Shown here in pieces: positions 3,754-58,363 of a stretch of DNA of 64,000 nucleotides. Both the position numbers and the translations under genes were made by a program. Origin of the DNA: Candidatus Enterousia sp. (GTDB lineage Bacteria > Pseudomonadota > Alphaproteobacteria > Rs-D84); NCBI GenBank assembly GCA_045546075.1, contig JAZQCF010000001.1:79683-143682 (forward strand), written 5' to 3'. Below the pieces are notes generated by a model. That model saw only the letters and a program-made list of their open reading frames with translations, made no database searches and was not told the origin of the DNA. Numbering within the stretch: the first letter of the stretch is position 1; every line of letters starts with the position of its first letter.

Positions 3754-4326
3754 ATGAAATTCAAATTGCTGTATTTTGGTGAAATTTTAATTAACCCCAA
3801 AAAGCGGGCCCAGCATATATCCGATATACGTATGCAATTTCACCCACAATTAAAGAAATTGGTTGAACATCAACCATGGGACAAATTAACACAATATATG
3901 GCACCGAACCCGGCAAAAAGTCCGGTCATTACACGCCACGTTGGCGGCATAGATTGGAATCCAATCATTACACCAAAACTGAAACTGATTGCAGAATTAG
4001 ATATTCAAATGTTGCACCCAGAAATTATCGGTGTTCCGCGTTCCGACATTGACAACCGAATCAAGACATTATTTGACGGTCTGCGTTGTCCACAAAATGA
4101 ACACGAAATCGGTCAAAACGTTCCACGTGATATTGGCCCAATTTATACCCTGTTGGATGATGACCATTTGATTACCAAGATATCTGTTAACACCAGCCAT
4201 TTGCTGTCATCGCATATGTTTCATCCTGATTTGGTGACCACCAGTCCCGATTGTGTATTTATGATGATTGATGTAAACCTGCGTGTCGCCGAAGGTACGT
4301 TGGAAAACCTGCCGTTTATGGTATAG
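3754..4326 (+). CDS. Hypothetical protein with a RusA-like D-x-D-N-x-x-K ... DDD motif (190 aa)
   Basis: PRSDIDNRIKTLFDGL ... LLDDDHLI has the same spacing as E. coli RusA RRDLDNLQKAAFDAL ... LDDAQV (D70, D72, K76, D91), except for a ~16-aa insertion before the last acidic residue. This is a by-eye match only. The TAG stop abuts a repeat element. Confidence 0.4.
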   Translation: MKFKLLYFGEILINPKKRAQHISDIRMQFHPQLKKLVEHQPWDKLTQYMAPNPAKSPVITRHVGGIDWNPIITPKLKLIAELDIQMLHPEIIGVPRSDIDNRIKTLFDGLRCPQNEHEIGQNVPRDIGPIYTLLDDDHLITKISVNTSHLLSSHMFHPDLVTTSPDCVFMMIDVNLRVAEGTLENLPFMV

Positions 4327-4327
4327 A

Positions 4328-4396
4328 GTGGTTAGTGTAAGTGGATAGTGGTTAGTGATTGATGGCCTCTGGAATATTCCAGAAACTGCTAACCAC
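4328..4396 (+). repeat. GTGGTTAGTG-family palindromic element, short form (copy A-left)
   Basis: GTGGTTAGTG at 4328 and 4348, a perfect 16-bp palindrome TCTGGAATATTCCAGA at 4368-4383, and CTAACCAC at 4389-4396. It aligns with the copies at 4810-4892 and with the reverse complement of 20437-20516. Confidence 0.85.
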
Positions 4397-4402
4397 TCCC
4401 CA

Positions 4403-4570
4403 CTAAATATCACTCATCGCCTGCTGTGTTATTGCACAGATTAAACCGACAAACTCTTTTTGGGTCATTCTGTATCCGCGGTGTTTTTTATAAAAATCAA
4501 GAATAGCCGCAATTAATAATTCTTCATGTTCCGCTGCTGGTTTTACTTTCTTTGTTTTTGCATTGTTCAT
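4403..4570 (-). CDS. Small HTH-like protein (55 aa, below the ORF-track cutoff)
   Basis: Hand translation gives MNNAKTKKVKPAAEHEELLIAAILDFYKKHRGYRMTQKEFVGLICAITQQAMSDI*. SD AAGAGGA lies 7 nt upstream of the ATG at 4570. The C-terminus resembles XRE-type helix 2-3 (MTQKEF..L..ITQQAMS). The stop sits at the element edge. Confidence 0.4.
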   Translation of the reverse strand: MNNAKTKKVKPAAEHEELLIAAILDFYKKHRGYRMTQKEFVGLICAITQQAMSDI

Positions 4571-4587
4571 TTTTTAATCCTCTTATT

Positions 4588-4703
4588 AAAAACAAAAACC
4601 GTTAGAAAAAATTCAAACGGTTGGATGTTCACAGCTATTGATATCGGTAAATAGTGGGTTTATTCATATATATCACCCCATCCAACCGATGGTTGGATTT
4701 TTT
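4588..4703. ncRNA. Conserved structured non-coding module, copy A (leader, attenuator or sRNA; strand unresolved)
   Basis: Hairpin 4597-4603/4616-4622. GGTTGGATG (4619-4627) is complementary to CATCCAACC (4679-4687). Conserved block GTTTATTCATATATAT at 4658-4673. Hairpin ATCCAACC-GAT-GGTTGGAT followed by TTTTT at 4680-4703. The same element order occurs at 53427-53550. Confidence 0.35.
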
Positions 4704-4809
4704 ACATCATCGCTGATGCCAATATCATACATGGGCTGTGACACCCACCGATAGAATCCCTATCAACAATTGAAACATACAATAAATTCAATCGAAAATC
4801 AATTAGAAA

Positions 4810-4892
4810 GTGGTTAGTGGATAGTGGTTAGTGACTGGTGGTTTCTGGAATAATTTCATAATTACAAACTAATTCCAGAAACTACTAACCAC
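4810..4892 (+). repeat. GTGGTTAGTG-family palindromic element, long form (copy A-right)
   Basis: GTGGTTAGTG at 4810 and 4824, inverted repeat TTTCTGGAAT (4842-4851) / ATTCCAGAAA (4872-4881), and CTAACCAC at 4885-4892. It contains the TAG stop of the pilR-like gene. Confidence 0.85.
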
Positions 4893-5962
4893 TAACTTAA
4901 AAACGCCGTTATCTGGTCTTGCATTTGGAATGTGCCAAGGACAATCCACGCAATCACCGCGGATATAAGTAATATTCCAACCGTATTCAATGTTTCCGCA
5001 ACCGATTCAATTTTCTTGACCGAATTTTCCAAATAGTCATTTGAAATCTGGGTCAGGTTTTCATCAAAATCGTTCATATCGGCATAAATTGTCAAATCAC
5101 CAATCAATTCCTGATTTGGAAAATCCATACCTGTATTTTGCAACGCATTCCCAAGGTTATCACCATTTGCAATATAATGCAGCGTTTCATCTAAAATCCT
5201 GCGCAGATATCGGTTGGAATTATCGGCCAACATACGCATTGCATCCGGAATCGTAACACCCGCCGCAACCATCGCAGAAAGCGACATCATCCAACCAACC
5301 GACAGACGAATTTTATAAATATTCCACGGGGGCAAACCATCAAATATTGCACGCAAACGACCCGAAAAACGTGGCAAAGACCACCAAACAAAAATACCAA
5401 ACACAACCAATACTATTGAAAACGCCTTCCAATATTTACCGGCAATATTTGACAACCATATCAATGATGCCGCCCCACCCGACCAAACCATATCTTCGCC
5501 GGCAACCGCGGAAAGTGGTGGCACCAAATATAAACCGACCATAATTATAATCGCAAAAACCAAAACCAATAACAACGTTGGATATGCTATTGCACTGAAT
5601 ACCGCACTACCTATTCTTTTATTTGCAACAATAATGCGACCGACATTTTCCAATGCGACAATTAAACTGGACATATTTCCAGATGTTAACAGTAATGTTT
5701 CTTCGGCGGGAACCCAACCACGTGTGGCCTCAGAAAAACTCATTCCGCGTTCCAGGTTTTTTTCCCATTCGCGCATACATATTGCAAACGGTTCATTTGG
5801 TTTTGCGCCACCACGTGATTCAATCATTTGCAATCTGTTCAACGCATTTACCAATGTAAAATCATTTTTCAACAACGATACCAATTTACGCCATATAGAA
5901 ATACGTTTATCATTACTGAAACGACAAACCATTTTGGCATAAAATATTTCCAACCTGTTCAT
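4892..5962 (-). CDS. Type IV pilus/T2SS platform protein (GspF/PilC family; R64 PilR / BfpE position)
   Basis: Polytopic membrane protein of ~356 aa with GspF-like organisation, immediately downstream of the secretion ATPase. I placed the start at MNRLEIF (5962), which has a GGGGG SD, rather than at 6013. Confidence 0.75.
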   Translation of the reverse strand: MNRLEIFYAKMVCRFSNDKRISIWRKLVSLLKNDFTLVNALNRLQMIESRGGAKPNEPFAICMREWEKNLERGMSFSEATRGWVPAEETLLLTSGNMSSLIVALENVGRIIVANKRIGSAVFSAIAYPTLLLVLVFAIIIMVGLYLVPPLSAVAGEDMVWSGGAASLIWLSNIAGKYWKAFSIVLVVFGIFVWWSLPRFSGRLRAIFDGLPPWNIYKIRLSVGWMMSLSAMVAAGVTIPDAMRMLADNSNRYLRRILDETLHYIANGDNLGNALQNTGMDFPNQELIGDLTIYADMNDFDENLTQISNDYLENSVKKIESVAETLNTVGILLISAVIAWIVLGTFQMQDQITAFLS

Positions 5963-5963
5963 A

Positions 5964-7601
5964 TTAATAAACCCCCGGTCTGTCCAACAACCCAACCCAG
6001 CGTTCCAATTCATCTACACCGATTATACCCTGTAACATCAATGAACACGCAGATTCTTTTAATGTGCGACCGTCCATTTCTTCCAACCAGTATTTAACGG
6101 CGGCATCGGTATTCCCGGCCAATGCCAATCGCAAAAATTCACTGTTTGTAATAATAATTTCACCGGCCTTGATACGTCCCAACGTTCCGGTTCCATTACA
6201 CGCATCGCAACCCGGGCCACGAACATAAACCTGGTCCAATCCTAATTCACCGAACGTATCCATAACACGTGCATATTCCGGGTATTCGGGATGATTTTTT
6301 AATTTTTCACGACAATGTGGACACAGCCTTTTGAACAAACGCATTGAAACCAAACCGCGCATCATTGTTTCTTCTTTTAACTTAAATGCTTCGACCCCCA
6401 TATCCAGCAATCGCACCAACGCGGCCATCGCAGAATTTGCGTGCAAAGTTGTCCAAACATTATGTCCGGACAATGCGCCCTTGACTGTTAATTGTGCGGC
6501 GGCCAATGTTCGAATTTCACCAACCATCAATGTGTCGGGGTCACTGCGCAATGCGGCGGCCAAAGCTTCGGTATATTCGTTTTCACGTTGTTCTTCATTT
6601 GCGGTATTTATAACCGGAATTTGATGTGCACCAAATATTTTTTGTTCGACCGGATCTTCCACGGTAATAAGGTTAATTTCATAATTATGTTCTTTTAACA
6701 TCAACACCATATTACGAACCAGTGTTGTAGATTTACCGGAACTGGTTGGACCGGCAACAACGACCAACCCGGTTGGATATGAACGCAAACGTCGCAACAG
6801 TGTTTGTTCATATTTTCCAAATTCTTGTTCGGTTGTTATACTTTCCGACGGGTTATCATACAGCAATCGCATAACAACATATCGCGAACCGAACGCAATC
6901 GGGTTAAATTGCATACGAATACTTAAAACCCCTTGGGGCAGGTATAAATCTTTGGTTCCGCGCAATGGTGTGTGACCGTCTTTTTGTGCAGATTGATATT
7001 CATTTTGTGCATAGTTCGCATTTGAAATATCGGCGGACGCAAACGCGGCACGAACAAACGATTCACCCCAACCCGAATTAAATTCTAAAACGGGTTGCAT
7101 ACTGCCATCTATACGGAAATATATTGTTGTTTGGTCTGCAACCTCGATATGAATATCCGAAACTTTTTGTGCGGCGGCCTTGGCAACAATATCGACAAAA
7201 TCCTTTTGCATTTGGTTGTTAAAATCAACACGCGAACGATTGCCTTCACCCAAAGTATTTTCATAGTATTTATATATCGCCGAAACCAAACCCAAATCCG
7301 AATAGAACGGTATGCGCATTGGACGATTTTTCTTGCGCAACAAATCCATAAATGCCAACACACGACCATCATACCGATGTGTCCGCGAAATAATCAGGCA
7401 CCCACCCGAAAAGTATGCCAACAAACCTTGGGTTTCTTTTGGCAATTCAAATTCCGCACCCATCGCCGTCAACAGATGATTATTTTCTGCAAATAAATAT
7501 TCTATTATTTCTTTATTATCTGCATGCTCTAACCCCGCCGGCACAGACGGTTTTTTTGAATCAGGCACTTTATCTAAAATATCTTTTTCATCGGTTTTCA
7601 T
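5964..7601 (-). CDS. GspE/PilB-family secretion ATPase (R64 PilQ / BfpD position)
   Basis: Walker A GPTSSGKST, His box TTLHANSA, and the tetracysteine CPHC...CDACNGTG. Length 545 aa. Confidence 0.9.
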   Translation of the reverse strand: MKTDEKDILDKVPDSKKPSVPAGLEHADNKEIIEYLFAENNHLLTAMGAEFELPKETQGLLAYFSGGCLIISRTHRYDGRVLAFMDLLRKKNRPMRIPFYSDLGLVSAIYKYYENTLGEGNRSRVDFNNQMQKDFVDIVAKAAAQKVSDIHIEVADQTTIYFRIDGSMQPVLEFNSGWGESFVRAAFASADISNANYAQNEYQSAQKDGHTPLRGTKDLYLPQGVLSIRMQFNPIAFGSRYVVMRLLYDNPSESITTEQEFGKYEQTLLRRLRSYPTGLVVVAGPTSSGKSTTLVRNMVLMLKEHNYEINLITVEDPVEQKIFGAHQIPVINTANEEQRENEYTEALAAALRSDPDTLMVGEIRTLAAAQLTVKGALSGHNVWTTLHANSAMAALVRLLDMGVEAFKLKEETMMRGLVSMRLFKRLCPHCREKLKNHPEYPEYARVMDTFGELGLDQVYVRGPGCDACNGTGTLGRIKAGEIIITNSEFLRLALAGNTDAAVKYWLEEMDGRTLKESACSLMLQGIIGVDELERWVGLLDRPGVY

Positions 7602-12935: not shown

Positions 12936-13012
<77 letters not shown>

Positions 13013-13026
13013 AGATTTAACAAAAG

Positions 13027-13048
13027 ACATCCCTTGTGGATGTTTTTT
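13027..13048 (+). terminator. Intrinsic terminator after tRNA-fMet
   Basis: ACATCC-CTTGT-GGATGT followed by TTTTT. Confidence 0.7.
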
Positions 13049-13057
13049 GTTAAATAT

Positions 13058-13529
13058 GTGTGTTGTGTTGGATTTGAACCACCGAATAAAGGTGGTTCAG
13101 TGCAAGGATTAGGCGATTGGAAAGCGCCGGTTTGCGCGTCGCGCAAAAATCCGCAGCCAATGAAGCAAAGCGAAATAAATCCATCCCCCGCAACCAGTTT
13201 TAATAAAAAATGTGCCCCTGTGGCGCATTTTTTATTTAAAGTGTGTTGTGTTGGGTTTGAACCACCGAGGCAAGGTGGTTCACCACAAGCGAAAGCCGGA
13301 CGGAAGTACGGCGGTCAACCAATGGTTGATGAGCGCAGTTGGCGCGAAAATTTTATTTTCGCGAAATCCATCCAACCTAAATTTCGAATAACTACAAATT
13401 TGCGCGCAGCCGGCACATAATGTACCGCGCGAGCGACAACAAGTAGATTTTGGGAAGCGCAGCGCAGCAAAATCGCTATGGTTGCCCAGCAGACACCAAT
13501 GGTGTCGATGGAAATCCATCCCCCCGCCA
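13058..13529 (+). repeat. Tandem copies of the tRNA-fMet 3' end with associated hairpins (att-like scars)
   Basis: AAATCCATCCCCCGCAACCA (12993-13012) recurs perfectly at 13177-13196, in degenerate form at 13364-13377, and near-perfectly at 13512-13529. Homologous units GTGTGTTGTGTTGG(A/G)TTTGAACCACC-N7-GGTGGTTCA lie at 13058-13099 and 13241-13281. A second terminator lies at 13210-13233. Confidence 0.8.
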
Positions 13530-13622: not shown

Positions 13623-14798
13623 ATGCAGGCAATTAAACGGATAATTTTTACCGTATTTTTACTTATTGTGGTACTTTTCCGCGCCCCGGCCTATGCAGAA
13701 GATGAAAATAATTTCGAAGCAAAATTTACATTTACCGTGAATGTGACAAGTACACGAAATAATACAACCTTATTCAAATTGGCATCAACTGGAACTTTCT
13801 ATATTGATTACGGTGATGGTTCAACCGGAACAATAAACTCAACATCAACAAATCAACAAACAATTTCACATCGTTATACAACAACCGGAACCAAAACAAT
13901 CAAACTTGGTGGACTTGCCACAGGTTATTCAACCGGCAGTGAAGAATCAGATTCATCTATACTTTTCGCAGATAATACTTATATAACCGGAATTTCCGGG
14001 TCATTGGGTCAAATATTCCCGACACTTGAAAACGGTTCACAACCATTGTTCAAGGCAACATTTGCCGAATGCACAAACCTGGCAGGGTCAATTCCAGCTG
14101 AATTGTTTGACGGTATAACCGGTCAACCACGCGCAGAAATGTTCCGCTCTTTGTTTTGGAACGACAAAAAATTAACCGGTTCTATTCCAGGTGAATTATT
14201 TTCCGGATTATCCGGCACCCCAACAAGTAATTTATTTTATGGTGTATTTTATTATTGCAGCGGTCTTACTGGTTCTATTCCCGGTGAATTGTTTGCTGGT
14301 ATTGTCGGAAACCAACAGGAACGATTATTCCAAAATACATTCAATTACTGTTCTAAACTTTCCGGTTTTATTCCACCAGAATTATTTGCCGGTATAAATA
14401 AAACCCCGGCTGTTACAGGGACAAACGGCGCATTTACAAATGTTTTTGCAAATACAACCAACATGTCTACAACATGCCCGACAAATTACAAAAAATACAC
14501 AACCGGTTTTGAAAATTATTTTAACAGTCGTGTTTCGTGCGAGCCAGATGTTTCGTGTTCAACGGGTTATGCGGCATATGGTGCAAGTTGTTATAAAACT
14601 TGTTCATTTGGTAAAAAATTTATGGTTTCAACCGGACTTAGTTTCGATGTATTTGGTGAACCCGAACCATCGGGAAATCCATCTATGCATATAAAACTGG
14701 GCGACACAGAATGTTATGTATTTTCAAAACCCGGCAGTGGCAGTTTCAATTTCAAATACACCGATGGAAAAACATATCATTTGGTTGGCGCAAATTAA
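13623..14798 (+). CDS. Secreted BspA-like leucine-rich-repeat protein with a Cys-rich C-terminus
   Basis: Signal peptide ending APAYA/ED. There are 4-5 repeats of ~29-30 aa of the form F..F..C..L(T/A/S)GSIP.ELF.G..G. The repeats are also similar at the DNA level (for example 14173-14215 versus 14263-14305). Confidence 0.6.
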   Translation: MQAIKRIIFTVFLLIVVLFRAPAYAEDENNFEAKFTFTVNVTSTRNNTTLFKLASTGTFYIDYGDGSTGTINSTSTNQQTISHRYTTTGTKTIKLGGLATGYSTGSEESDSSILFADNTYITGISGSLGQIFPTLENGSQPLFKATFAECTNLAGSIPAELFDGITGQPRAEMFRSLFWNDKKLTGSIPGELFSGLSGTPTSNLFYGVFYYCSGLTGSIPGELFAGIVGNQQERLFQNTFNYCSKLSGFIPPELFAGINKTPAVTGTNGAFTNVFANTTNMSTTCPTNYKKYTTGFENYFNSRVSCEPDVSCSTGYAAYGASCYKTCSFGKKFMVSTGLSFDVFGEPEPSGNPSMHIKLGDTECYVFSKPGSGSFNFKYTDGKTYHLVGAN

Positions 14799-17104: not shown

Positions 17105-17410
17105 ATGAAACAACAGGTGCTGAAAGCTTTGGCGAATCCTTCGCATTTGTTTTATGTGCCATATACTTTGGCGGTGCTGAACTTTATGATTCAGTTCATT
17201 ATTTTTACTGTCCTGTTTATAATTGGAATATTTGTACTTGGCACCGATAAAGTGAATGATTACCTGAATCCGCTGTATTTTTTAATATCTGTTGTTATTG
17301 TTCATATGATTTTGGCAACATTTTCAAAGCGCGATGCACAACTGGGCCAGATTTTAATTGCGAAAATAAAAATGATTAAAGACAGAATTCCACGGAGATT
17401 ACCCGCATGA
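17105..17410 (+). CDS. virB3: Type IV secretion system protein VirB3
   Basis: 101 aa with two TM helices and a VirB3-like N-terminus (LANPSHLFYVPYTLAVLN). The stop overlaps the virB4 start as ATGA. Confidence 0.8.
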   Translation: MKQQVLKALANPSHLFYVPYTLAVLNFMIQFIIFTVLFIIGIFVLGTDKVNDYLNPLYFLISVVIVHMILATFSKRDAQLGQILIAKIKMIKDRIPRRLPA

Positions 17411-19824
17411 TGAACAATTTTTTTAGATTTTTTGCCGGCGGCGGGATTTCCAGCACTGTTACCTTGACGGTTATGGTGGTGGCGGTGATTTTGGCATTTA
17501 TTATATTAATGATGTTTATTCCAACAATAATTAAATATATGTTTCCAAAATTTGGATATAAACACTATGCGGAATATATACCTTTCCGGACGGTTTATAC
17601 CGATGATTCTATTGAATTAGATGACGGATGCCTGGTTCGGGTTTATTCTGTGGCGGGTGTCCAAACCAGTATGCAAACCGAAGAAAATCGTGAAAAATTC
17701 TTGGACCTGCGTGCCCAGTTATTTAATCAAATACACGACCCGAATGTTGTTATGCGATTTTTTACAATTCGTGATGCGGCGGGCGAAAACACAAACTATG
17801 AATTCGACCAACCTGTTTTACAAAAAATATATGATAAATGGCATTCCCAGGGATTAAAAATATTCCTTAATAATTATTATATAGTATTGTCTGTGCGTGG
17901 GTCCGGCGCGCGCGACAAATTAAATCAATATGGAAATTATATTGAATCTATATTGGCACCATATAAGCCAAAAATGTTAAAAAATAATTCGCGTGATAAT
18001 ATGGCGCGGTTTTTCGGTCGTATATTTTCCCCGATAACAAAGCCCACCCCGGTGGTTTGTGATGATAAAATCAAAGAATTATCAACCGTTGACGATGTTG
18101 AATTTTTACGTAATGGAACCGTTAAGTATATAAGTGGCGCGCGCGAATATTATGCGGCATTGGTTTCTTTCCGTGGTGCGCCGGATTATTTGGACGAAGA
18201 TTTCTTTGATTCTGTAAATACCATACAAACAGAAATGATTTGTATGAACGGTTTCAAAATTATGGATTCTGCATCTATTGATATGACATTGCGTCAACGG
18301 CGCAGCGTTGCAGATAAAGAAAATGATTCAACCGAACAACAAATTTCACGTGCGGAATCTGTGATGGATGAAAATGTTTCAGGTAATCAAACATTGGTAA
18401 ATTATTATCCTTTATTTATATTGTTTGGTAAAACACCTGATGAATTAAAAGAATATGTTGATGAATTCAAAAAAATATCTGCGTCGTTTGGTGTATCACC
18501 AATCCAGGAAAATTTTGCATCCAAGGTTTCTTGGTTTTCTGTTATCCCGGGTTTTGATACATTTCCGCGCACATTCAAAATGTTATCACGTGCGGCGGCA
18601 ATATCTGTTCCAATGTCAACAACACCGCGTGGTGTTGCAAATTCCGATTGGGGTCCGGGGCCATTGGTTGTATTCCCCACGGCCCAGGGAACACCATATC
18701 AATTTCAATTTCACGTTTCGGATAAGCCCGCCGCGGTTGGTCATACATTAACAATCGGTCCAACGGGTGGTGGTAAAACAACATTGTTCTCGTTCTTGAT
18801 TGCGCAATCACTGCGACATAAAAAATTAAAGGCGTTTTTCTTTGACCGCAACAAAGGGGCCGAGATATTTACACTTGCGACCGGCGGAAAGTATATAACT
18901 ATGCAGGGTAAAGAAAAGACCGAGGCATCATTTTTAACACACCTGAATCCATTAAAGATGCCGGATACGGTGGCGAACCGCGCATTTTTGCGGCGTTGGT
19001 TTGCGATGATATCTGAACAAAATGACGCGGCATCGGCGGATGAAATTGCACGCGCGGTTTCTGTGAACTTTGATTATTTGGCGGATAAAGACCGTATGCT
19101 TAAAAATTTGTATGAAAGTTGTTTTTCATCCACTGGTAAGATGCGTGCCGCATTAAAGAAATGGGTTGACCCATTGCAATATGGTGAAATATTTAACGAA
19201 GATACCGATACATTGGATTTACAATCACGCCTAACAACATTTGATTTTACCGATATTTTGGCGGACCCAACACTTGCGCCCGCGGTAATATCATATATTT
19301 TACATCGAATAAATAATACAACGGTGTCCGGTGGAAATCCGTCCCTGATTATGATTGACGAAACCGCGCCAATGTTGGAAAACAAGATGTTCCGTGATAA
19401 TTTTATAACCGGCCTGCAAGAAGGACGCAAAAATCGCCAGGCATATATGGTCGCGTTCCAACGTGCAAATGTTTTGGATAAACTGGGTATCGGTGATGTT
19501 GTTCGTGGCCAGGCGCAAACAATAATGTTCTTCCGTAACCCGGCGGCGGATGCGGCGGATTATGAACATTGGAATTTGAATCCACTTGAAATGGCGTTTA
19601 TCCAGGGCAAAGCCTATCCAAACCTGAAACGTGCGGTTTTGTTGTCGCGGCCGGTAAATAATGAATCGGTAATTTTGAATACAGAACTTGGTGGACTTGG
19701 GAATTTATTGCGGTTGTTTGAATCGGGTCGTTCATCGGTATTATTGGCCGAAGAATTATATAACCAATTCGGTTCGGCTTTTGTGGCGGAATACCTGAAA
19801 AAACAAGGCGCAGGCGATTTTTAA
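17407..19824 (+). CDS. virB4: Type IV secretion system ATPase VirB4
   Basis: 805 aa, Walker A GPTGGGKTT, a Walker B-like IMIDETAP, and typical virB3-virB4 coupling. Confidence 0.92.
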   Translation: MMNNFFRFFAGGGISSTVTLTVMVVAVILAFIILMMFIPTIIKYMFPKFGYKHYAEYIPFRTVYTDDSIELDDGCLVRVYSVAGVQTSMQTEENREKFLDLRAQLFNQIHDPNVVMRFFTIRDAAGENTNYEFDQPVLQKIYDKWHSQGLKIFLNNYYIVLSVRGSGARDKLNQYGNYIESILAPYKPKMLKNNSRDNMARFFGRIFSPITKPTPVVCDDKIKELSTVDDVEFLRNGTVKYISGAREYYAALVSFRGAPDYLDEDFFDSVNTIQTEMICMNGFKIMDSASIDMTLRQRRSVADKENDSTEQQISRAESVMDENVSGNQTLVNYYPLFILFGKTPDELKEYVDEFKKISASFGVSPIQENFASKVSWFSVIPGFDTFPRTFKMLSRAAAISVPMSTTPRGVANSDWGPGPLVVFPTAQGTPYQFQFHVSDKPAAVGHTLTIGPTGGGKTTLFSFLIAQSLRHKKLKAFFFDRNKGAEIFTLATGGKYITMQGKEKTEASFLTHLNPLKMPDTVANRAFLRRWFAMISEQNDAASADEIARAVSVNFDYLADKDRMLKNLYESCFSSTGKMRAALKKWVDPLQYGEIFNEDTDTLDLQSRLTTFDFTDILADPTLAPAVISYILHRINNTTVSGGNPSLIMIDETAPMLENKMFRDNFITGLQEGRKNRQAYMVAFQRANVLDKLGIGDVVRGQAQTIMFFRNPAADAADYEHWNLNPLEMAFIQGKAYPNLKRAVLLSRPVNNESVILNTELGGLGNLLRLFESGRSSVLLAEELYNQFGSAFVAEYLKKQGAGDF

Positions 19825-19825
19825 T

Positions 19826-20437
19826 ATGTTGAAAAAATTTCTAATTTTTGCAATTTGTTTTTCATCAATATCGTGTTTTGCGAACGATTGTATTAAATAT
19901 AAACAAACCCCGAAAGTTAATATTGCATCCCCGATATATCGAAAATCTGTTTCGCAATCAAATATTCAAATAAATAAAAATCATGGAAATGTAATTGCGA
20001 CATTGGTTGAAGATTATGATATTGCCGTTGATATATTTTCGGCCCCGGGTGGTTATTGTGTTGTATTAAAATCTGTTGATGCGTTAATTGGGTACGATGA
20101 TTTTTCTGTTAAAATTGATTATTCACATAAATATGGTTCGTGTTCATATAACGCGATTTTGAATCACGAAGATAAACACATCGATGCATATTTATCTGTT
20201 ATAAATGATTTAGAATTTGATATAGAAAGTTCGGTATTTAACGCGGCGGATTCAATGATGCCGATATTTGTATCATCGCGCGATGATATAGAATCCGCCA
20301 TAGAAGAAATAAACTATGAAATGCGTGGTCATCCAGAATTAATTTTGATAAAACAAAAAATCAATGCGGCAATGGAAATTCGCAATAAACGCATAGACCA
20401 AAATGAAGATAATCACGAATTAAAATCGTGCTTTTAG
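19826..20437 (+). CDS. Secreted protein with an HExxH motif (203 aa; possible Zn-metallopeptidase-like protein)
   Basis: Signal-like N-terminus MLKKFLIFAICFSSISCFA and LNHEDKHIDAY (HEDKH = HExxH). It starts 2 nt after the virB4 stop. Any family assignment (DUF922-like?) is not verifiable here. Confidence 0.35.
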   Translation: MLKKFLIFAICFSSISCFANDCIKYKQTPKVNIASPIYRKSVSQSNIQINKNHGNVIATLVEDYDIAVDIFSAPGGYCVVLKSVDALIGYDDFSVKIDYSHKYGSCSYNAILNHEDKHIDAYLSVINDLEFDIESSVFNAADSMMPIFVSSRDDIESAIEEINYEMRGHPELILIKQKINAAMEIRNKRIDQNEDNHELKSCF

Positions 20438-20516
20438 TGGTTAGTAGTTTCTGGAATTAATTCACGATTATGAAATTATTCTAGATACCACAAGTCACTA
20501 ACCACTTACACTAACA
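20437..20516 (-). repeat. GTGGTTAGTG-family palindromic element, solo copy C (inverted relative to the A copies)
   Basis: The reverse complement aligns with 4810-4892 at roughly 85 percent identity by eye. It spans from the TAG stop of ORF 19826-20437 into the last codons and stop of dnaG. Confidence 0.85.
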
Positions 20517-38713: not shown

Positions 38714-39364
38714 ATGATAACGCCACGGCAATTTTTCGAAATCGTGCCAAATAACCTTAATATGGATATTCGGTCGGAACTGTATTCCACAAACGATTTT
38801 ACATTTGCCGTGGCGGTAATTTTATCGGCCCAGGCCACCGACAAGAAAGTCAACGAAGTGACCCCCGCCCTGTTCCGCGTGGCCGGAACGCCACAAAAAA
38901 TGTTGGAATTGGGTCTTGACGGGTTAAAGCAATATATACGCGTAATATCTTTCTTTAATAACAAGGCCAAGAATATAATCGCACTGTCCGGGCATTTGGC
39001 AAAATATGATAACACCGGTGCCGATTGGACATTTCCCAAAAAATATCATAATCGCGCCGAACTTATGAAATTGCCGGGCGTTGGGCAAAAGACCGCAAAT
39101 GTTATAACAAATGTTTTATGGGGTGCGCCGAATATTGGGGTCGATACGCATGTATTCCGCCTGGCCCATCGGTATGGTTGGGTTGACGCATCCGCAAACA
39201 CCCCCGAAAAAGTCGAAGCCGAATTGTTAAAAAAGATTCCAAAAAAATATCATGACATAGTAAATCACGTTATGGTCCTGTTTGGGCGATATACGTGTAC
39301 GGCGCTGCGCCCAAAGTGTGCAAATTGCCCATTGCGGAAATTGTGTGAATACAATAACCACTAA
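38714..39364 (+). CDS. nth: Endonuclease III
   Basis: HhH LPGVGQKTANVITN, VDTHVFR, and the 4Fe-4S cluster CTALRPKCANCPLRKLC. 216 aa. Confidence 0.93.
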   Translation: MITPRQFFEIVPNNLNMDIRSELYSTNDFTFAVAVILSAQATDKKVNEVTPALFRVAGTPQKMLELGLDGLKQYIRVISFFNNKAKNIIALSGHLAKYDNTGADWTFPKKYHNRAELMKLPGVGQKTANVITNVLWGAPNIGVDTHVFRLAHRYGWVDASANTPEKVEAELLKKIPKKYHDIVNHVMVLFGRYTCTALRPKCANCPLRKLCEYNNH

Positions 39365-39368
39365 ATAC

Positions 39369-39396
39369 TTGCAAATCTAAATTTCTCTGTTATAAT
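39369..39396 (+). promoter_or_regulatory. Candidate promoter of the tRNA-Val locus
   Basis: TTGCAA (39369-39374), 16-nt spacer, TATAAT (39391-39396). Confidence 0.5.
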
Positions 39397-39408
39397 GCCC
39401 GTTGCCTT

Positions 39409-39475
39409 GGGTGGTTAGTTCGGTTGGGAAGCCGCGTACGTTGACATCGTAAAGGTCGTTGGTTCCCGGCCCGAG
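39409..39475 (+). pseudogene. Degenerate partial copy of tRNA-Val
   Basis: It shares GGGTGGTTAG and a 29-nt block TACGTTGACATCGTAAAGGTCGTTGGTTC (39437-39465) with the adjacent tRNA-Val. The D-arm, the T-stem 3' half and the acceptor 3' strand do not pair. Confidence 0.55.
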
Positions 39476-39491
39476 AACACTTGAAGAATAT

Positions 39492-39568
39492 GGGTGGTTA
39501 GCTCAGTTGGTTAGAGCGTTACGTTGACATCGTAAAGGTCGTTGGTTCGAGTCCAATACCACCCACCA
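39492..39568 (+). tRNA. tRNA-Val (anticodon GAC), CCA encoded
   Basis: GGGTGGTTAGCTCAGTTGGTTAGAGC, anticodon loop TTGACAT, T-arm GTTGGTTCGAGTCCAAT, then ACCACCCACCA. Length 77 nt. Confidence 0.95.
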
Positions 39569-52651: not shown

Positions 52652-53092
52652 ATGGTTGATACCAAAGGTATAGAGGCGGTAATTCCGCATCGTGGCGATA
52701 TGCGCCTGGTTGATGAAATTCGCGAATTTACGGACAAAACCGCGGTGGGGATTAAACACATCACAAATAACGAATTCTGGTGCAAGGGTCATTTCCCGGC
52801 CAAGCCGATTATGCCGGGTGTCTTGATTGTCGAGGCATTGGCCCAAACCGCGTGTTTTACAATCCTGAACGCGATTGGTAATAATGGCGGGCGCGCATTG
52901 GGATACTTTGTGACGATTGAAAATGCCAAGTTCACACATATGGTTGTTCCGGGCGATACATTGGAATTACATATCGAAGAAATCGGTTCTAAAATGAAAC
53001 TGCATAAATTTAACGGCACGGCATTCGTAAATGGCAAACGTGTCGCGGTTGCAACATTTTCTGCAATGTTGGACAACGACCCGGTGATTTAG
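52652..53092 (+). CDS. fabZ: 3-hydroxyacyl-ACP dehydratase FabZ
   Basis: PHRGDMRLVD, HFPAKPIMPGV, 146 aa, directly after lpxD. Confidence 0.95.
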   Translation: MVDTKGIEAVIPHRGDMRLVDEIREFTDKTAVGIKHITNNEFWCKGHFPAKPIMPGVLIVEALAQTACFTILNAIGNNGGRALGYFVTIENAKFTHMVVPGDTLELHIEEIGSKMKLHKFNGTAFVNGKRVAVATFSAMLDNDPVI

Positions 53093-53149
53093 TGGTTAGT
53101 CCGTCACGACCGCGGCGCGGCGTGCCGCGACGGGTGTTAGTGGTTAGTG
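53092..53149 (+). repeat. GTGGTTAGTG-family motifs flanking a GC-rich hairpin (copy B-left)
   Basis: GTGGTTAGT at 53092 overlaps the fabZ TAG stop, and GTGGTTAGTG lies at 53140. GC-rich imperfect palindromic sequence sits between them. Confidence 0.7.
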
Positions 53150-53172
53150 CGGGCGCAATTGCGCCCGTTTTT
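53150..53172 (+). terminator. Intrinsic terminator after fabZ
   Basis: CGGGCGC-AATT-GCGCCCG followed by TTTTT. Confidence 0.75.
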
Positions 53173-53398
53173 ATTTGTGTTTTGGGGGCACGCGCCGGCA
53201 CCGCAACAGGCAAAACCCGTGATAAAATACAGATTGTAAAATATTGTCCGGAATTATCTCTTTACCCTGTTCATATTTATGTAATTGCCGTGCAGATATT
53301 GAAAACATCCTTGCAACGTCATCTGCGCCCAGGCAATTATGCCGCCGCGCATTACGCAACGCGCGCCCAAAATATTTTGAATCAACCAATGTAACCAT
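53171..53398 (-). CDS. XRE-family helix-turn-helix protein (75 aa)
   Basis: GRALRNARRHNCLGADDVARMFSISARQLHKYEQGKEIIP is a canonical XRE HTH. A GGAGG SD lies 6 nt upstream of the ATG. Confidence 0.65.
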   Translation of the reverse strand: MVTLVDSKYFGRALRNARRHNCLGADDVARMFSISARQLHKYEQGKEIIPDNILQSVFYHGFCLLRCRRVPPKHK

Positions 53399-53426
53399 TT
53401 TATACCTCCATTTTGGTTATAAAAAT

Positions 53427-53550
53427 ACCGTCAAGACATTTGACGGTTGGAGGTTAGAAACCTGTAAGATACAACAGTGTCGTTTATTCAATATATTCGC
53501 GACCCTCCAACCAAATGGAGTTTTCGTATCTTAAGAGGGTTTCTAATCCT
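53427..53550. ncRNA. Conserved structured non-coding module, copy B
   Basis: Hairpin 53427-53433/53441-53447. GGTTGGAGG (53445-53453) is complementary to CCTCCAACC (53504-53512). Conserved block GTTTATTCAATATATT at 53482-53497. Local hairpin followed by TTTTC at 53505-53525. A long imperfect stem pairs 53451-53472 with 53526-53550. Confidence 0.35.
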
Positions 53551-53587
53551 CGCACTGGTTGTCAACCAATGCAGAAATATTATAATT

Positions 53588-53615
53588 GAAAACGGTTGCG
53601 CTTGCAACCGTTTTC
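53588..53615. terminator. Strong bidirectional terminator hairpin
   Basis: GAAAACGGTTGC-GCTT-GCAACCGTTTTC, a 12-bp stem. Confidence 0.7.
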
Positions 53616-53616
53616 G

Positions 53617-53655
53617 CACTAACCACTAATCACTAACACTAACCACTAACACTCG
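53617..53655 (-). repeat. GTGGTTAGTG-family motifs, inverted orientation (copy B-right)
   Basis: CACTAACCAC at 53617 and 53637, with related CACTAAC units between them. It ends 4 nt before the stop of the VIT-family gene. Confidence 0.75.
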
Positions 53656-53658
53656 CCA

Positions 53659-54165
53659 CTATATCGCTATCCCGAAAAATATTTTTGCGCATTCGCCAAT
53701 CGCAAACGCAACAAACGTCACAATCGCACAGATTATCAACATCTCGATAAACGATGGCCAAAGGCGCACCCCCATTAACACAGAACGCAAATAATTAAAC
53801 ATAAATATTATTGACGCGCCGATAACAAAGGTCATTGTAATCGCAATAAAGGAATTTTCGATAAATATAAATGGCACCAATAACATAAGCGCACTGAACA
53901 TATAGGCAATGCCCGTCATTATGCCGCGCCATAATGCGACCCGCGTGTTACCGCCCGCCTTTTGCGACAGGTATTGCGATGCCGTCATTGACAATCCCGC
54001 CGATGCCGCGGCAATAAGACCCGTTAAAACGATTACATATTGTGTCGCATCGGCAAACACCAACCCGGTAATCAAACCCAGTGTTGATACCAATGCGTCG
54101 TGCATTCCCAAAACCAGTGAGGCCCAAACAGGTTCTTGTTCTTTCATTTTCGTCATACTTTTCAT
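53659..54165 (-). CDS. VIT1/CCC1-family membrane protein (iron/manganese transporter-like, no ferritin-like domain)
   Basis: LGMHDALVSTLGLITG motif and five TM helices. 168 aa. Confidence 0.65.
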   Translation of the reverse strand: MKSMTKMKEQEPVWASLVLGMHDALVSTLGLITGLVFADATQYVIVLTGLIAAASAGLSMTASQYLSQKAGGNTRVALWRGIMTGIAYMFSALMLLVPFIFIENSFIAITMTFVIGASIIFMFNYLRSVLMGVRLWPSFIEMLIICAIVTFVAFAIGECAKIFFGIAI

Positions 54166-56116: not shown

Positions 56117-58363
56117 CTATTTTACCACAGGTGCCAATTCAATCAATTCATTTGTTTGCGGATTATAATACCGCGGGTTGCCGCTGTATTCCAAAATCGC
56201 GTGGTGCATTGGTATAAGGAATTCCGGCAACGGCGATGACCGCCCCATTTTTTGATAAGTGGACATTACCGGATCACTGAACGACATACGCAATTCCGCC
56301 TTAATCGGGCGATGATACCAACCTTCATAAATAACAAGTGCTTCGCCAGGTTTGCCATTTACGGTTGTTTTTAATTTCATAATATCAAATTCACTGAATA
56401 ATGGTTCGGTCTTGGGAACCTCGGTTTCTTTTCCGTCCGGCCCTTTTTCTTTTTTCATTGTGATTTTTGTTCCCATCATTTCAGAAAAACGTTTTGCGGT
56501 GTCCGGGTCATTTTGACGCAAAACAACCTTGGCCGCGGTGGTTGATATAATTGTCGCGGCGGCATCCGGGCCATACTTTTCTTGAATCTGGTGTAAATCC
56601 TGGCCAATAAACAGGTATGAAATCTGCTGACCACGACCAACATCGGGCCCCTGAATAATGGCCTGCATTTTTTGCATTTTCGGCATTTCATCCAGTAAGA
56701 ACAACACCGGATATGGTCCCATCTTTTCGCCACTGCGTCCCACGTGTTCTGGCGGGTTCGCCAACAAGAAATTCGACATCGTTTCAATAAACATCGCGGT
56801 AATTGGATTTAATGCCTTGGCATCAACCATATTGATGGACAGGTAAACCGTTACCGGCTTCATTTTACCATCACGTGGGTCAATCATTCCGCGCATATCG
56901 GCAAAGTGAAAATCCGAATGGCTGGTTCGGTTGCGGACCGCCGCGTTCCGGAATATCGCAAGGCCTGTTAAAATAGTTGAAATAATTGACCCACGTTCGG
57001 TTGACGGGGTGTTTGCCAATTTGGTTAATTCCGCCACCGCACGGTTTGAATACGCGAACATACGGCATTCATTGACCGCCGATTCCAACCAATCTTTCAT
57101 TGGGTCCGCCATCATAACACTTTGGTCGCCCTGACGCTGACGTTCCGCCAAATCGTTGGCAACGGCAATTTGCGCCTCGGTAATCCAATCCAACATCATT
57201 GAAAAAGATGCCTCTTTACCCAACCACATTTGTGGAATATTCGCCCATGTCCCAATATGCACATAGTTCATCGCATTTAATTCGCCATTTTTAATCAGGG
57301 CCTGTGCCGCAAATGCGTTTGGGTCATTTACCATTGAAAAATAGTAATCGGCCAAAACCGCGGCATCTTCGGCATCAAATTCGCCGGATTGCAGGCGCGC
57401 ATAGAAATAATCGTCCGCCTTGGCCCGTTCAATTTTCGAAACAATAAATTGTATAAACCCGGCCAATCCCGCACGCCCAGATTGGGTCCAGTGTGGGTCG
57501 GCACTGCTGCCTTTGGCATCGGGGACCAAAACGTCACAGATATAATCCACATATAATTCGCGTTGTTCAATACTGAACGGAATATGACCCGGCGATAGTG
57601 GATTCCACGATGGATAATAAATACCCTTGTCTGGTTCGTCTTGACCGCCCCAATCCATAATAAACACCGGACCAACCTTGGCGGCACGATATGCACTGGA
57701 TATGCCATCCAATTCAGGTTTTGGGTCGTTGATAATCATTGAAACATTTGTACATTCAAAAATGGTCGGCAACACGATACCATATGTTTTACCGGTTCCC
57801 GGGGGTGCCAAACATAAAACAGATAATGTTTTTGGTAATTTTAACGGTTTCTTTTTGAAGTATCCCAAAACCATCATAAACCCGTCAAACAGCCCCATCG
57901 CCTTGACATCCGCCTCGTTTGCCTCACGCGAAGATTTTTTATCAAATTTATCTTTGCCGTGGGGGTTAAATTCGCCCTTTAATGTATCATCGGTCAACAA
58001 GAAATATGCGATAAATGGTATAATCGGCACAATGCACGGGAAATCCGGATGCATAATGCAACGAATAATCCAACTTGGAATTTCTGCAATAACCGACAGG
58101 CCTGCACTGGACACCATATTTGCCAGGTATAATTTTATCCAATCGGCCGTGGCTGGCGACCATCCATACCGCCAAATGTGTTCAATAATAAACGATGCAC
58201 AAAACGCCGCCGCACATATCAGCCACACACCAACCGACCATCGCAGTGCCCAAAAAACCTGGGCCATGGGGGTTTGTTCGTGTTCTTTATATGCGCTGGA
58301 TTTGAATATATTCAAACCCTTGCTGTCGCGGCCCGCAGATAAAATCTTGAACTTTTCAACCAT
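56117..58363 (-). CDS. virD4: Type IV secretion coupling protein VirD4/TraG
   Basis: N-terminal TM helices, Walker A LAPPGTGKTYG, and TraG/VirD4-type length and pattern (748 aa). Confidence 0.88.
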   Translation of the reverse strand: MVEKFKILSAGRDSKGLNIFKSSAYKEHEQTPMAQVFWALRWSVGVWLICAAAFCASFIIEHIWRYGWSPATADWIKLYLANMVSSAGLSVIAEIPSWIIRCIMHPDFPCIVPIIPFIAYFLLTDDTLKGEFNPHGKDKFDKKSSREANEADVKAMGLFDGFMMVLGYFKKKPLKLPKTLSVLCLAPPGTGKTYGIVLPTIFECTNVSMIINDPKPELDGISSAYRAAKVGPVFIMDWGGQDEPDKGIYYPSWNPLSPGHIPFSIEQRELYVDYICDVLVPDAKGSSADPHWTQSGRAGLAGFIQFIVSKIERAKADDYFYARLQSGEFDAEDAAVLADYYFSMVNDPNAFAAQALIKNGELNAMNYVHIGTWANIPQMWLGKEASFSMMLDWITEAQIAVANDLAERQRQGDQSVMMADPMKDWLESAVNECRMFAYSNRAVAELTKLANTPSTERGSIISTILTGLAIFRNAAVRNRTSHSDFHFADMRGMIDPRDGKMKPVTVYLSINMVDAKALNPITAMFIETMSNFLLANPPEHVGRSGEKMGPYPVLFLLDEMPKMQKMQAIIQGPDVGRGQQISYLFIGQDLHQIQEKYGPDAAATIISTTAAKVVLRQNDPDTAKRFSEMMGTKITMKKEKGPDGKETEVPKTEPLFSEFDIMKLKTTVNGKPGEALVIYEGWYHRPIKAELRMSFSDPVMSTYQKMGRSSPLPEFLIPMHHAILEYSGNPRYYNPQTNELIELAPVVK

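Follow-up and report, generated by a model that had tools for sequence, protein, structure and literature searches.

A conserved 5' leader RNA, probably an on/off switch, in repeat-flanked gene units of Candidatus Enterousia

Layout of cassette A and of its twin unit

The DNA studied here is a 64,000-nt stretch of a Candidatus Enterousia sp. genome (contig JAZQCF010000001.1, positions 79,683 to 143,682), referred to below as the window. Near its left end lies cassette A, which consists of a palindromic element (4327-4396), a minus-strand open reading frame (ORF A, 4403-4570), about 220 nt of structured non-coding sequence without a credible ORF, and a second palindromic element (4810-4896). 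The left neighbour is a gene for a 190-aa protein with its stop at 4326, and gyrB lies on that side; the right neighbour is a T2SS-F/PilC-type gene (4892-6013, PF00482), followed by a gene for a PilB-type ATPase. An earlier note, made from the sequence alone, had described these parts, and all of them are present where it had placed them; its 'pilR-like' label for the gene at 4892-6013 has to be replaced by the PilC-type assignment.

A twin unit, B, is located at 53092-53647 between fabZ and a VIT1-family gene. The earlier statement that the layout recurs in B is correct, and a conserved core is shared as well, whereas the flanks of B are inverted repeat arrays and not two full palindromic elements. 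Enterousia belongs to the order Rs-D84, uncultured gut symbionts with reduced genomes that are mostly smaller than 1 Mb (PMC12306168).

The spacer is a 5' leader RNA that recurs in many genomes

When the minus strands of A and B were aligned, a common core became visible: ..UCCA..GGUUGGAKGG, a stem with the loop AUAUAU(U)GAAUAA, ..CMUCCAACCGU, a hairpin, a U-run, a Shine-Dalgarno sequence and the ATG. The non-coding part of the units is a 5' leader RNA of about 190 nt, located on the ORF strand. A degenerate pattern of this core matched 81 loci in a species-representative genome collection, three of which (in Bacilli, Gammaproteobacteria and a Kangiella metagenome-assembled genome, MAG) were judged to be chance matches and set aside. 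Nearly all remaining loci are in rumen or gut MAGs named Candidatus Enterousia, Alphaproteobacteria or Rickettsiales. Copy numbers reach at least 9 in one MAG and 7 in another, in genomes of less than 1 Mb. Altogether, 83 distinct leader copies were collected in the alignment A2; they represent about 46 species-level assemblies, as counted from accession prefixes, so that the recurrence expected by the earlier note extends well beyond the window.

A covariance model of the leader family (R1), run over the 64 kb with filters off, recovered only leader A (129.6 bits, E 4.6e-33) and leader B (166.6 bits); the third-best match reached 17.7 bits, and neither nhmmer nor R1 with filters off gave further copies in the window. 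The features of unit A are as follows.

4403-4570, minus strand: ORF A, 55 aa (MNNAKTKK...QQAMSDI), complete, with two predicted helices
4572-4792, minus strand: leader A as matched by R1, including the promoter region, 129.6 bits
4578-4584, minus strand: AAGAGGA, the Shine-Dalgarno sequence of ORF A, identified by direct reading
4586-4622, minus strand: intrinsic terminator, stem AACCGUU/AACGGUU plus U-run
4620-4628, minus strand: 3' switch segment CAUCCAACC, overlapping the 5' arm of the terminator by 4 nt
4629-4635, minus strand: P1 3' strand GCUGUGA, partner of 4735-4741
4656-4679, minus strand: P3 hairpin with the conserved A/U-rich loop GAUAUAUAUGAAUAAA
4679-4698, minus strand: P2 hairpin, formed by the 5' partner AUCCAACC (4691-4698) and the middle switch segment GGUUGGAUG (4679-4687)
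4735-4741, minus strand: P1 5' strand UCACAGC, flanked by P1a GGG...CCC
4748-4767, minus strand: P0 hairpin at the predicted 5' end of the transcript, with many G-U pairs
4774-4779 and 4797-4802, minus strand: inferred weak promoter (-10 TATGTT, -35 TTGATT), read from the alignment and below the scan threshold

No counterpart of the family was found among described RNAs. Rfam 15 at the gathering threshold returned only three tRNAs from the whole window, and at E<=10 over 4300-4920 and 53080-53680 the best matches stayed far below threshold and fell on the palindromic element or were at chance level. The searchable literature on Enterousia, Rs-D84 and the core motifs contained no description of it either. 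That the leaders form a structured RNA family is near certain, and the earlier statement that no described system matches the locus holds for Rfam and the searchable literature.

Covariation supports a multi-helix structure closed by long-range pairing

The 83 copies share one order of elements. A sigma-70-type promoter is followed by hairpin P0, GRGG, the P1 5' strand, CYC(C) and the P1b 5' strand; next come an optional hairpin Px (present in A), P2 (CMUCCAAC..GGUUGGAKG), P3, P4, the 3' strands of P1b and P1, CMUCCAACC and the intrinsic terminator. Under this structure the paired cells of A2 amounted to 89.9%, against 75.5% after shuffling. The covariation score was 0.426 compared with 0.175 for shuffled alignments, a value that none of 500 shuffles reached, and sliding the pairing partners gave at most 0.123. 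Pairs changed on both sides were found in P0 (6/7), P1 (7/7), P3 (4/4) and P4 (3/4).

P1 and the hypervariable P1b occur in dozens of differing sequences, and their strands are complementary every time; in leader A, P1 is UCACAGC/GCUGUGA and P1b is UGAUAUUGG/CCGAUAUCA. A cross-pairing control for these two helices separated poorly because many copies share helices, and the listed compensatory variants and the covariation of A2 were relied on instead. In the additional helix P1a, GRGG pairs with CYC(C), every GAGG facing CUC and GGAU facing AUCC, and P1a together with P1 plausibly forms an H-type pseudoknot.

The RNA was assigned to the ORF strand because of its frequent G-U pairs. A small RNA (sRNA) on the plus strand was considered and rejected: the terminator-like stretch at 4680-4698 (plus strand) and a weak OmrA-B match (E 0.57) are the complement of the P2 hairpin, and the G-U pairs and model scores favour the minus strand. 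Attenuation by a leader peptide was likewise discarded, as the UUG or AUG before AAUAA in the P3 loop is UAG, UCG, CAG or AAG in other copies, and no conserved upstream ORF exists in the leader copies. A phage origin was also dismissed; a viral collection yielded two matches only, both the same Enterousia-like leader in front of a secreted protein.

Thus, the segment which the earlier note had called structured DNA is indeed structured, and it is a conserved 5' leader RNA with a terminator that is common to many unrelated genes, not a partner specific to helix-turn-helix (HTH) genes.

Terminator and dual complementarity of the middle segment

In 81 of 84 leaders the 3' end, just before the Shine-Dalgarno sequence, consists of a hairpin (median -9.4 kcal/mol) with a U-run behind it. 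The predicted start codon is located 31-62 nt past the core in nearly all copies; in four copies with an extra GC-rich element the distance is 83-100 nt.

GGUUGGAKG, the middle segment, has two complementary stretches: CMUCCAAC upstream, with which it forms P2, and CMUCCAACC downstream. Pairing with the downstream stretch takes up 3-4 nt at the start of the terminator stem and crosses P1 without a linker, so that this pairing and P1 are mutually exclusive. Both pairings were kept in three separate variant forms, namely AUCCAACC/GGUUGGAUG/CAUCCAACC in the five copies of the A clade, CCUUCUGCC/GGCAGGAGG/CCUCCUGCC in a diverged copy in L004, and ACUCCAAC/GGUUGGAGU/ACUCCAGCC in L061. The L004 and L061 variants are not imposed by the way the copies were collected, because neither matched the search pattern. 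This parallel conservation argues for a terminator/antiterminator switch, and we infer from it that the two folds interchange in vivo upon some trigger.

Folding of leader B gave a minimum-energy structure of -57.2 kcal/mol with P0, P1, P1b, P2, P3 and the terminator formed; with the alternative pairing enforced, the energy was -44.1 kcal/mol. The default state therefore appears to be the terminated one, and something must promote read-through. The motif GGAGG was found in 35% of the genes behind a leader compared with 2.8% of control genes from the same loci, which is compatible with masking of the Shine-Dalgarno sequence by the CCUCC stretch but is no proof of it.

Genes behind the leaders

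ORF A is, as the earlier note had it, a 55-codon minus-strand ORF preceded by AAGAGGA. Two further statements about it could not be upheld. It had been described as HTH-like; no Pfam match at E<=0.01 and no fold match in PDB were found, and the AlphaFold2 (AF2) model (pLDDT 76) consists of two helices (residues 11-29 and 37-53) without a helix-turn-helix. It had also been thought to be truncated by the repeat element. However, it is complete: 6 of 8 homologue clusters end in ...SDI-stop, while one reads into the repeat and one is cut short by it. The ratio of nonsynonymous to synonymous substitution rates (dN/dS) is 0.10 against a relative that is 80% identical; ORF A is thus under purifying selection and does not drift neutrally. 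The family is small, with only 4 representative clusters among 1.84 billion proteins.

The ORF A variants P0130 and P0137, from other samples, read into the repeat, which is translated as VVSVSG. One of them passes the stop (...SDIQWGVVSVSGQW...), and in the other the C-terminal helix is replaced by the repeat (...RMGQVVSVSG). Repeats can hence invade or extend coding sequence, as Rickettsia palindromic elements do.

ORF B encodes a 75-aa XRE-type HTH protein without sequence similarity to the A protein. Its dN/dS is 0.17-0.18, and its homologues are rare (9 clusters), stand in differing gene contexts and keep the upstream sequence. The genes behind other leaders are diverse: many paralogous XRE HTH proteins of 70-75 aa (B type, Pfam HTH_19), HTH proteins of 94-96 aa, A-type proteins of 41-63 aa, signal-peptide proteins of about 310 aa, Cys-rich secreted proteins and one protein of 1660 aa. 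No meaningful Pfam domain was detected in the ~310-aa, the Cys-rich secreted and the 1660-aa proteins.

Repeat elements at the borders of the units

The flanking repeats and the parts of unit B are listed below.

4327-4396: palindromic element, short form, with GTGGTTAGTG-type repeats, an imperfect hairpin (..TCTGGAATATTCCAGA..) and CTAACCAC; located between the stops of the 190-aa gene and ORF A
4810-4896: palindromic element, long form, with a 26-nt loop; abuts the stop of the PilC-type gene (4892)
20434-20510: solo element of the same family, 89% complementary to 4823-4895
53092-53149: left repeat array of unit B, GTGGTTAGT...GTGTTAGTGGTTAGTG, broken by a GC-rich 33-nt palindrome (53101-53133)
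53149-53168: hairpin past ORF B, bordered by an A-run and, at the opposite side, a T-run
53171-53398, minus strand: ORF B, 75-aa XRE-type HTH protein (Pfam HTH_19, 30.9 bits, cutoff 30.2)
53401-53597, minus strand: leader B, reaching from the -10 box of the promoter almost to the start codon, 166.6 bits
53607-53579, minus strand: leader B promoter, TTGCAA-17-TATAAT
53590-53615: hairpin AAAACGGTTGC..GCAACCGTTTT, containing the -35 box of leader B and serving as terminator for the upstream VIT1 gene
53617-53647: right repeat array of unit B, CACTAACCAC-type, in opposite orientation to the left one

Both elements of cassette A are imperfect palindromes. They lie in direct orientation, as had been reported, with a common left arm of 40 nt at 88% identity. 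The sequence GTGGTTAGTG with at most one mismatch occurs 20 times in the window compared with 2.2 expected, and none of 100 shuffles reached 20. True repeat sites in the window are the four that flank A and B plus the solo element; matches at 39351-39420 were rejected as a tRNA-like pseudo-copy. When all loci are taken together, only 15% of the sequence is within 500 nt of a leader, but this fraction contains 60 of the 89 repeat clusters. The claim of a recurring gene-plus-RNA unit with non-randomly associated flanking repeats is thereby sustained, and the GTGGTTAGTG elements form a repeat family of their own, which moves along with the units.

In many genomes the B-type units follow one order: gene stop, (GTGGTTAGTG)n, hairpin with the -35 box, leader, ORF, hairpin, (CACTAACCAC)n, and the hairpin type of 53590-53615 is kept in them. 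The hairpin at 53149-53168 can, given its A-run and T-run, terminate in both directions.

A 203-aa ORF and dnaG converge on the solo element, which fills the space between them; they end at 20437 and 20506, and the TAG within the element's TTAGTGG is the stop codon of the 203-aa ORF. The repeat thus supplies or overlaps stop codons, and likewise at the 190-aa gene, at fabZ and at ORF A, the TAG of which sits inside the first repeat unit.

Other small insertions were seen as well. The GC-rich 33-nt palindrome CCGTCACGACCGCGGCGCGGCGTGCCGCGACGG is inserted into the left array of unit B and is absent from the near-identical L095, and L004, L021, L064, L061, L030 and L083 carry small GC-rich hairpins (GGGG..CCGGCGGAGCCGGTGGGG), either ahead of a leader or between its terminator and the ORF. 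These GC-rich hairpin elements look like a second family of miniature insertions.

Presence, position and orientation of the units vary between strains

The orthologous locus gyrB / 86-aa / 190-aa / pilC / pilB was recovered from five other genomes, and comparison with L085-L091 showed cassette A to be missing there, with no leader found in any of them. L087 and L088 have a 52-nt gap with a plain terminator, L089 and L090 carry 432 nt of unrelated sequence, and L091 contains two other genes. In L085 and L086, the closest relative (190-aa protein 93% identical), the locus holds a different A-type ORF of 40 aa without a leader. This ORF (L085 2006-2128, L086 1329-1451) is located at the pilC-proximal site (MQTPLYAAILEFFVKNPGYKISPDEFVGLVNMLSKEALKN) and overlaps the stop of the 190-aa gene; lacking a leader, it is presumably transcribed together with pilB and pilC.

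Strains with an identical A protein carry the unit at the same locus, and their flanking elements vary in repeat number and loop length; in L097, L099, L101 and L102 the loop of the long element is reverse-complemented. A unit with an 80%-identical protein occupies the same locus in L104 and L105. In L103 the composite of unit and elements is found elsewhere, between UDG and another gene, with one element on each side. The units of L103 (2273-2493) and L104 (2268-2493) encode an identical 55-aa protein and have a common leader 3' end with differing 5' domains (AUCC type versus CUCC type with a different Px hairpin), which points to recombination within the conserved CCAACCGU region and to modular shuffling of leaders and ORFs.

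Unit B was found in the opposite orientation in L095, again between fabZ and VIT1 and next to an identical FabZ protein. The borders of the inversion fall exactly at the GTGGTTAGTG and CACTAACCAC arrays. Nucleotide identity to L095 is 99.5% for fabZ, 98.3% for VIT1 and 94.0% for unit B. Inversion takes the promoter along with the gene and should therefore not turn expression on or off.

Leader B has lost its 5' half between two CGAAAAC direct repeats in L094 and L096. The deletion (L094 1385-1400 and L096 470-485 versus L095 515-625) removed about 85 nt comprising the promoter, P0 and the P1/P1b 5' strands; FabZ is identical, and the HTH ORF of L094 shows an apparent frameshift. This copy of unit B is decaying.

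Absence at orthologous loci, the composite in L103 and the inversion in L095 support the earlier idea of a movable cassette, and on these sequence comparisons the units behave as movable or exchangeable. The specific types of cassette that had been suggested fit less well. An integron-like nature is contradicted by the units' own promoter, by copies that are scattered and form no same-orientation array, and by the lack of an integrase among the 49 large ORFs scanned in the window. Tandem cassette arrays were rejected as well; units are mainly solitary and now and then 2-5 kb apart. A classical miniature inverted-repeat transposable element (MITE) would not carry a conserved gene, and no target-site duplication was seen.

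Discussion

We consider it probable, at roughly 0.6, that cassette A is one copy of a lineage-specific modular unit in which the leader acts as a cis attenuation switch, and that such units are exchanged via their repeats. The unit would comprise, in order, its own promoter, the multi-helix leader of about 190 nt, the intrinsic terminator, the Shine-Dalgarno sequence and a small gene. Judged from the sequence, the leader is likely a cis-acting transcription-attenuation switch and thus probably turns the downstream gene on and off. In the favoured OFF fold, P2, P3 and P4 would sit in a junction closed by the long-range helices P1 and P1b, and the terminator would form. In the ON fold, the middle GGUUGGAKG would release its upstream partner and pair with the downstream CMUCCAACC, a pairing incompatible with P1 that would remove 3-4 bp of the terminator stem. 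The leader probably masks the Shine-Dalgarno sequence too. As for the trigger, our best guess is that a protein or a small ligand binds to the junction or to the conserved loop of P3.

The GTGGTTAGTG elements apparently serve as recombination substrates through which units are gained, replaced, inverted and relocated. Exchange could proceed by homologous recombination, perhaps after DNA uptake, or by means of a dedicated enzyme. Type IV pilus genes adjoin cassette A; T2SS-E, T2SS-F and PilO-like genes lie next to it, and genes of VirB4/TrbE-like and VirD4/TraG-like type IV secretion proteins are located at 17407-19824 and 56117-58363, far apart among housekeeping genes. These pilus and secretion genes are relevant if DNA uptake or transfer aids the exchange of units.

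Several points weigh against this interpretation. Only about one third of the leaders have GTGGTTAGTG clusters nearby. P4 and P1b both covary, yet they can hardly coexist. The search pattern fixed the blocks GGTTGGA.G, GAATAA and TCCAACCGT, so that their apparent invariance is partly imposed and only the few model-found copies escape this. Antiterminator and terminator overlap by just 3-4 nt, and in B the alternative fold lies about 13 kcal/mol above the favoured one; switching consequently needs a factor or kinetic control. Transcript ends and read-through of the leaders are predictions. No ligand is suggested by the regulated genes, which encode small regulators and secreted proteins lacking Pfam domains. 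The inverted B allele is more diverged than its flanks and may be a replacement rather than a simple flip. Finally, no integrase, transposase, invertase or recombinase was detected among the 49 scanned ORFs, which are housekeeping, pilus or type IV secretion genes or orphans without Pfam match; the elements are REPIN-like palindromes, and the window contains no Y1 transposase.

A more specific but clearly less probable possibility is that the leader, as aptamer plus expression platform, is a new riboswitch-type sensor that responds to an ion or a small molecule, and that the GTGGTTAGTG palindromes are portable homology or uptake sites through which entire sensor-gene modules could pass from locus to locus and from strain to strain. 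The small regulators and secreted proteins would then form a movable regulon under this sensor, in gut Alphaproteobacteria that are genome-reduced and probably depend on partners.

Other explanations were weighed against the switch-and-exchange interpretation. The RNA of about 190 nt might mainly be a trans-acting sRNA that stops at its terminator and uses an exposed, anti-Shine-Dalgarno-like CCUCC as a seed against GGAGG ribosome-binding sites, with the ORF expressed incidentally by read-through. Strong terminators, a terminated fold at the energy minimum, many copies per genome, a C-rich single-stranded stretch just before the terminator and the GGAGG enrichment in associated genes would all suit such an RNA. 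We nevertheless regard it as unlikely, because every copy is tied to a gene, the short distance from core to start codon in nearly all copies leaves no room for a separate promoter, CCUCC is paired with the 5' GRGG in the predicted ground state, and the conserved dual complementarity of the middle segment fits an internal switch; cis and trans roles are not mutually exclusive. The addiction module raised in the earlier note, here taken as a type III-like toxin-antitoxin system of a structured RNA antitoxin and a small protein toxin, is scarcely credible. The order of RNA, terminator and small ORF does recall ToxIN-type loci, and the units are multi-copy and movable, but tandem repeats are missing from the RNA, neither the 55-aa helical hairpin nor the 75-aa HTH protein is a nuclease, and the same leader precedes ~310-aa secreted proteins and a protein of 1660 aa.

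With respect to the repeats, a dedicated site-specific system (integron, RAYT/REPIN or invertase) that recognizes the palindromic elements as recombination sites seems decidedly unlikely. It would account for the palindromic flanks, the presence/absence, relocation and inversion of units, the element loops flipped between strains and the insulation of the unit by bidirectionally terminating hairpins at both ends; the lack of a candidate enzyme among the 49 large window ORFs scanned, the scattered units with own promoters and the missing target-site duplications speak against it, and the divergence of the inverted B allele (about 6%, flanks 0.5-1.7%) fits homologous exchange equally. Very unlikely, in our view, is an ordinary gene for a small regulator, with a long 5' untranslated region and framed incidentally by generic gene-end terminators that resemble repetitive extragenic palindromic (REP) sequences and have nothing to do with mobility. 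Elements do occur at the 3' ends of neighbouring genes, the solo element lies between convergent genes, most leaders have no repeats nearby and no recombinase was found in the window. However, 4 of the 5 true repeat sites in the window flank the two units, clusters are about four-fold enriched near leaders, and the composite at a second locus, the inversion of unit B at its array borders and the absence of cassette A from orthologous loci are not accounted for by incidental framing.

Relation to known systems

Like riboswitches, T-box elements and ribosomal-protein leaders, the RNA is a 5' leader in which a long-range P1 closes a multi-helix junction. It shares with riboswitches the terminator followed by the ribosome-binding site and many copies per genome before different genes, and it has a segment with two partners that are predicted to exclude each other. 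It differs in the lack of an Rfam 15 match even at E<=10, the short antiterminator-terminator overlap, the mobility of the units, and the genes themselves, which are small regulators and lineage-specific secreted proteins and not those of a metabolic pathway. Cuckoo and CcsR-type RNAs are multi-copy alphaproteobacterial sRNAs with CCUCCUCCC motifs, which are C-rich and anti-Shine-Dalgarno-like, and with a terminator. Copy number, C-rich motif and terminator are thus shared, whereas the leader differs in architecture, with about 190 nt, a likely pseudoknot and its motif outside hairpin loops, is fused directly to a downstream gene in each copy and gives no Rfam match. Unlike the RNA of type III toxin-antitoxin loci, it has no tandem repeats, and the associated proteins are small helical or HTH proteins.

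The repeats resemble REP, REPIN and BIME sequences, the Correia elements of Neisseria and the Rickettsia palindromic elements in being short, strain-variable imperfect palindromes at gene ends that sometimes overlap stop codons and are sometimes read into ORFs. Their sequence is unrelated, however, their arms are arrays of the 7-10-nt GTGGTTAGTG unit, and they bracket a promoter-leader-gene unit. As in integron cassettes, a small gene unit is bounded by imperfect palindromes and present or absent per site, but it has its own promoter and leader and a variable orientation, it does not stand in arrays of one orientation beside an integrase, and no IntI was among the ORFs scanned. Unit B is reminiscent of the invertons of gut bacteria, since it lies between inverted repeats and occurs in both orientations in near-identical strains; it differs by the bidirectionally terminating hairpins at both ends, the 6% divergence between the orientations and the lack of an invertase nearby. 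B-type units with their inverted arrays also recall a classical MITE, but the gene is under purifying selection and no target-site duplication was recognised.

Further features of the window

Two tRNA loci showed partial duplications. Within 39370-39565, the 58 nt behind a promoter-like TTGCAA..TATAAT (39408-39465) are a degenerate copy, with 84% identity, of the 5' portion of the tRNA at 39492-39565 (anticodon GAC by reading). The copy may be a duplicated or decayed tRNA or an integration scar; the 5' end of the tRNA, GGGTGGTTAGCTC, resembles the GTGGTTAG repeat unit. At the tRNA 12936-13009, the 3' end and downstream sequence are repeated about 183 nt further on (12993-13048 versus 13177-13232; 13058-13106 versus 13241-13289), and this att-like duplication (12936-13290) could mark an integrated or excised element. 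A 391-aa ORF without Pfam domain (13623-14798) contains four 93-nt periodic repeats (14082-14392), which correspond to protein repeats of 31 residues.

Significance for Enterousia

Large structured RNAs with such covariation are uncommon, and this one extends over about 190 nt with at least six helices, a likely pseudoknot and 83 distinct copies. We know of almost nothing that has been established about gene regulation in Rs-D84 and Candidatus Enterousia. The secreted orphan proteins and small regulators linked to the leader are likely mediators of interaction with the host or with partner cells, and the arrangement of promoter, leader, gene and terminators between palindromes amounts to a natural expression module that is insulated and independent of orientation. 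If the RNA proves to be a sensor, it would define a new regulon and a testable orphan riboswitch candidate.

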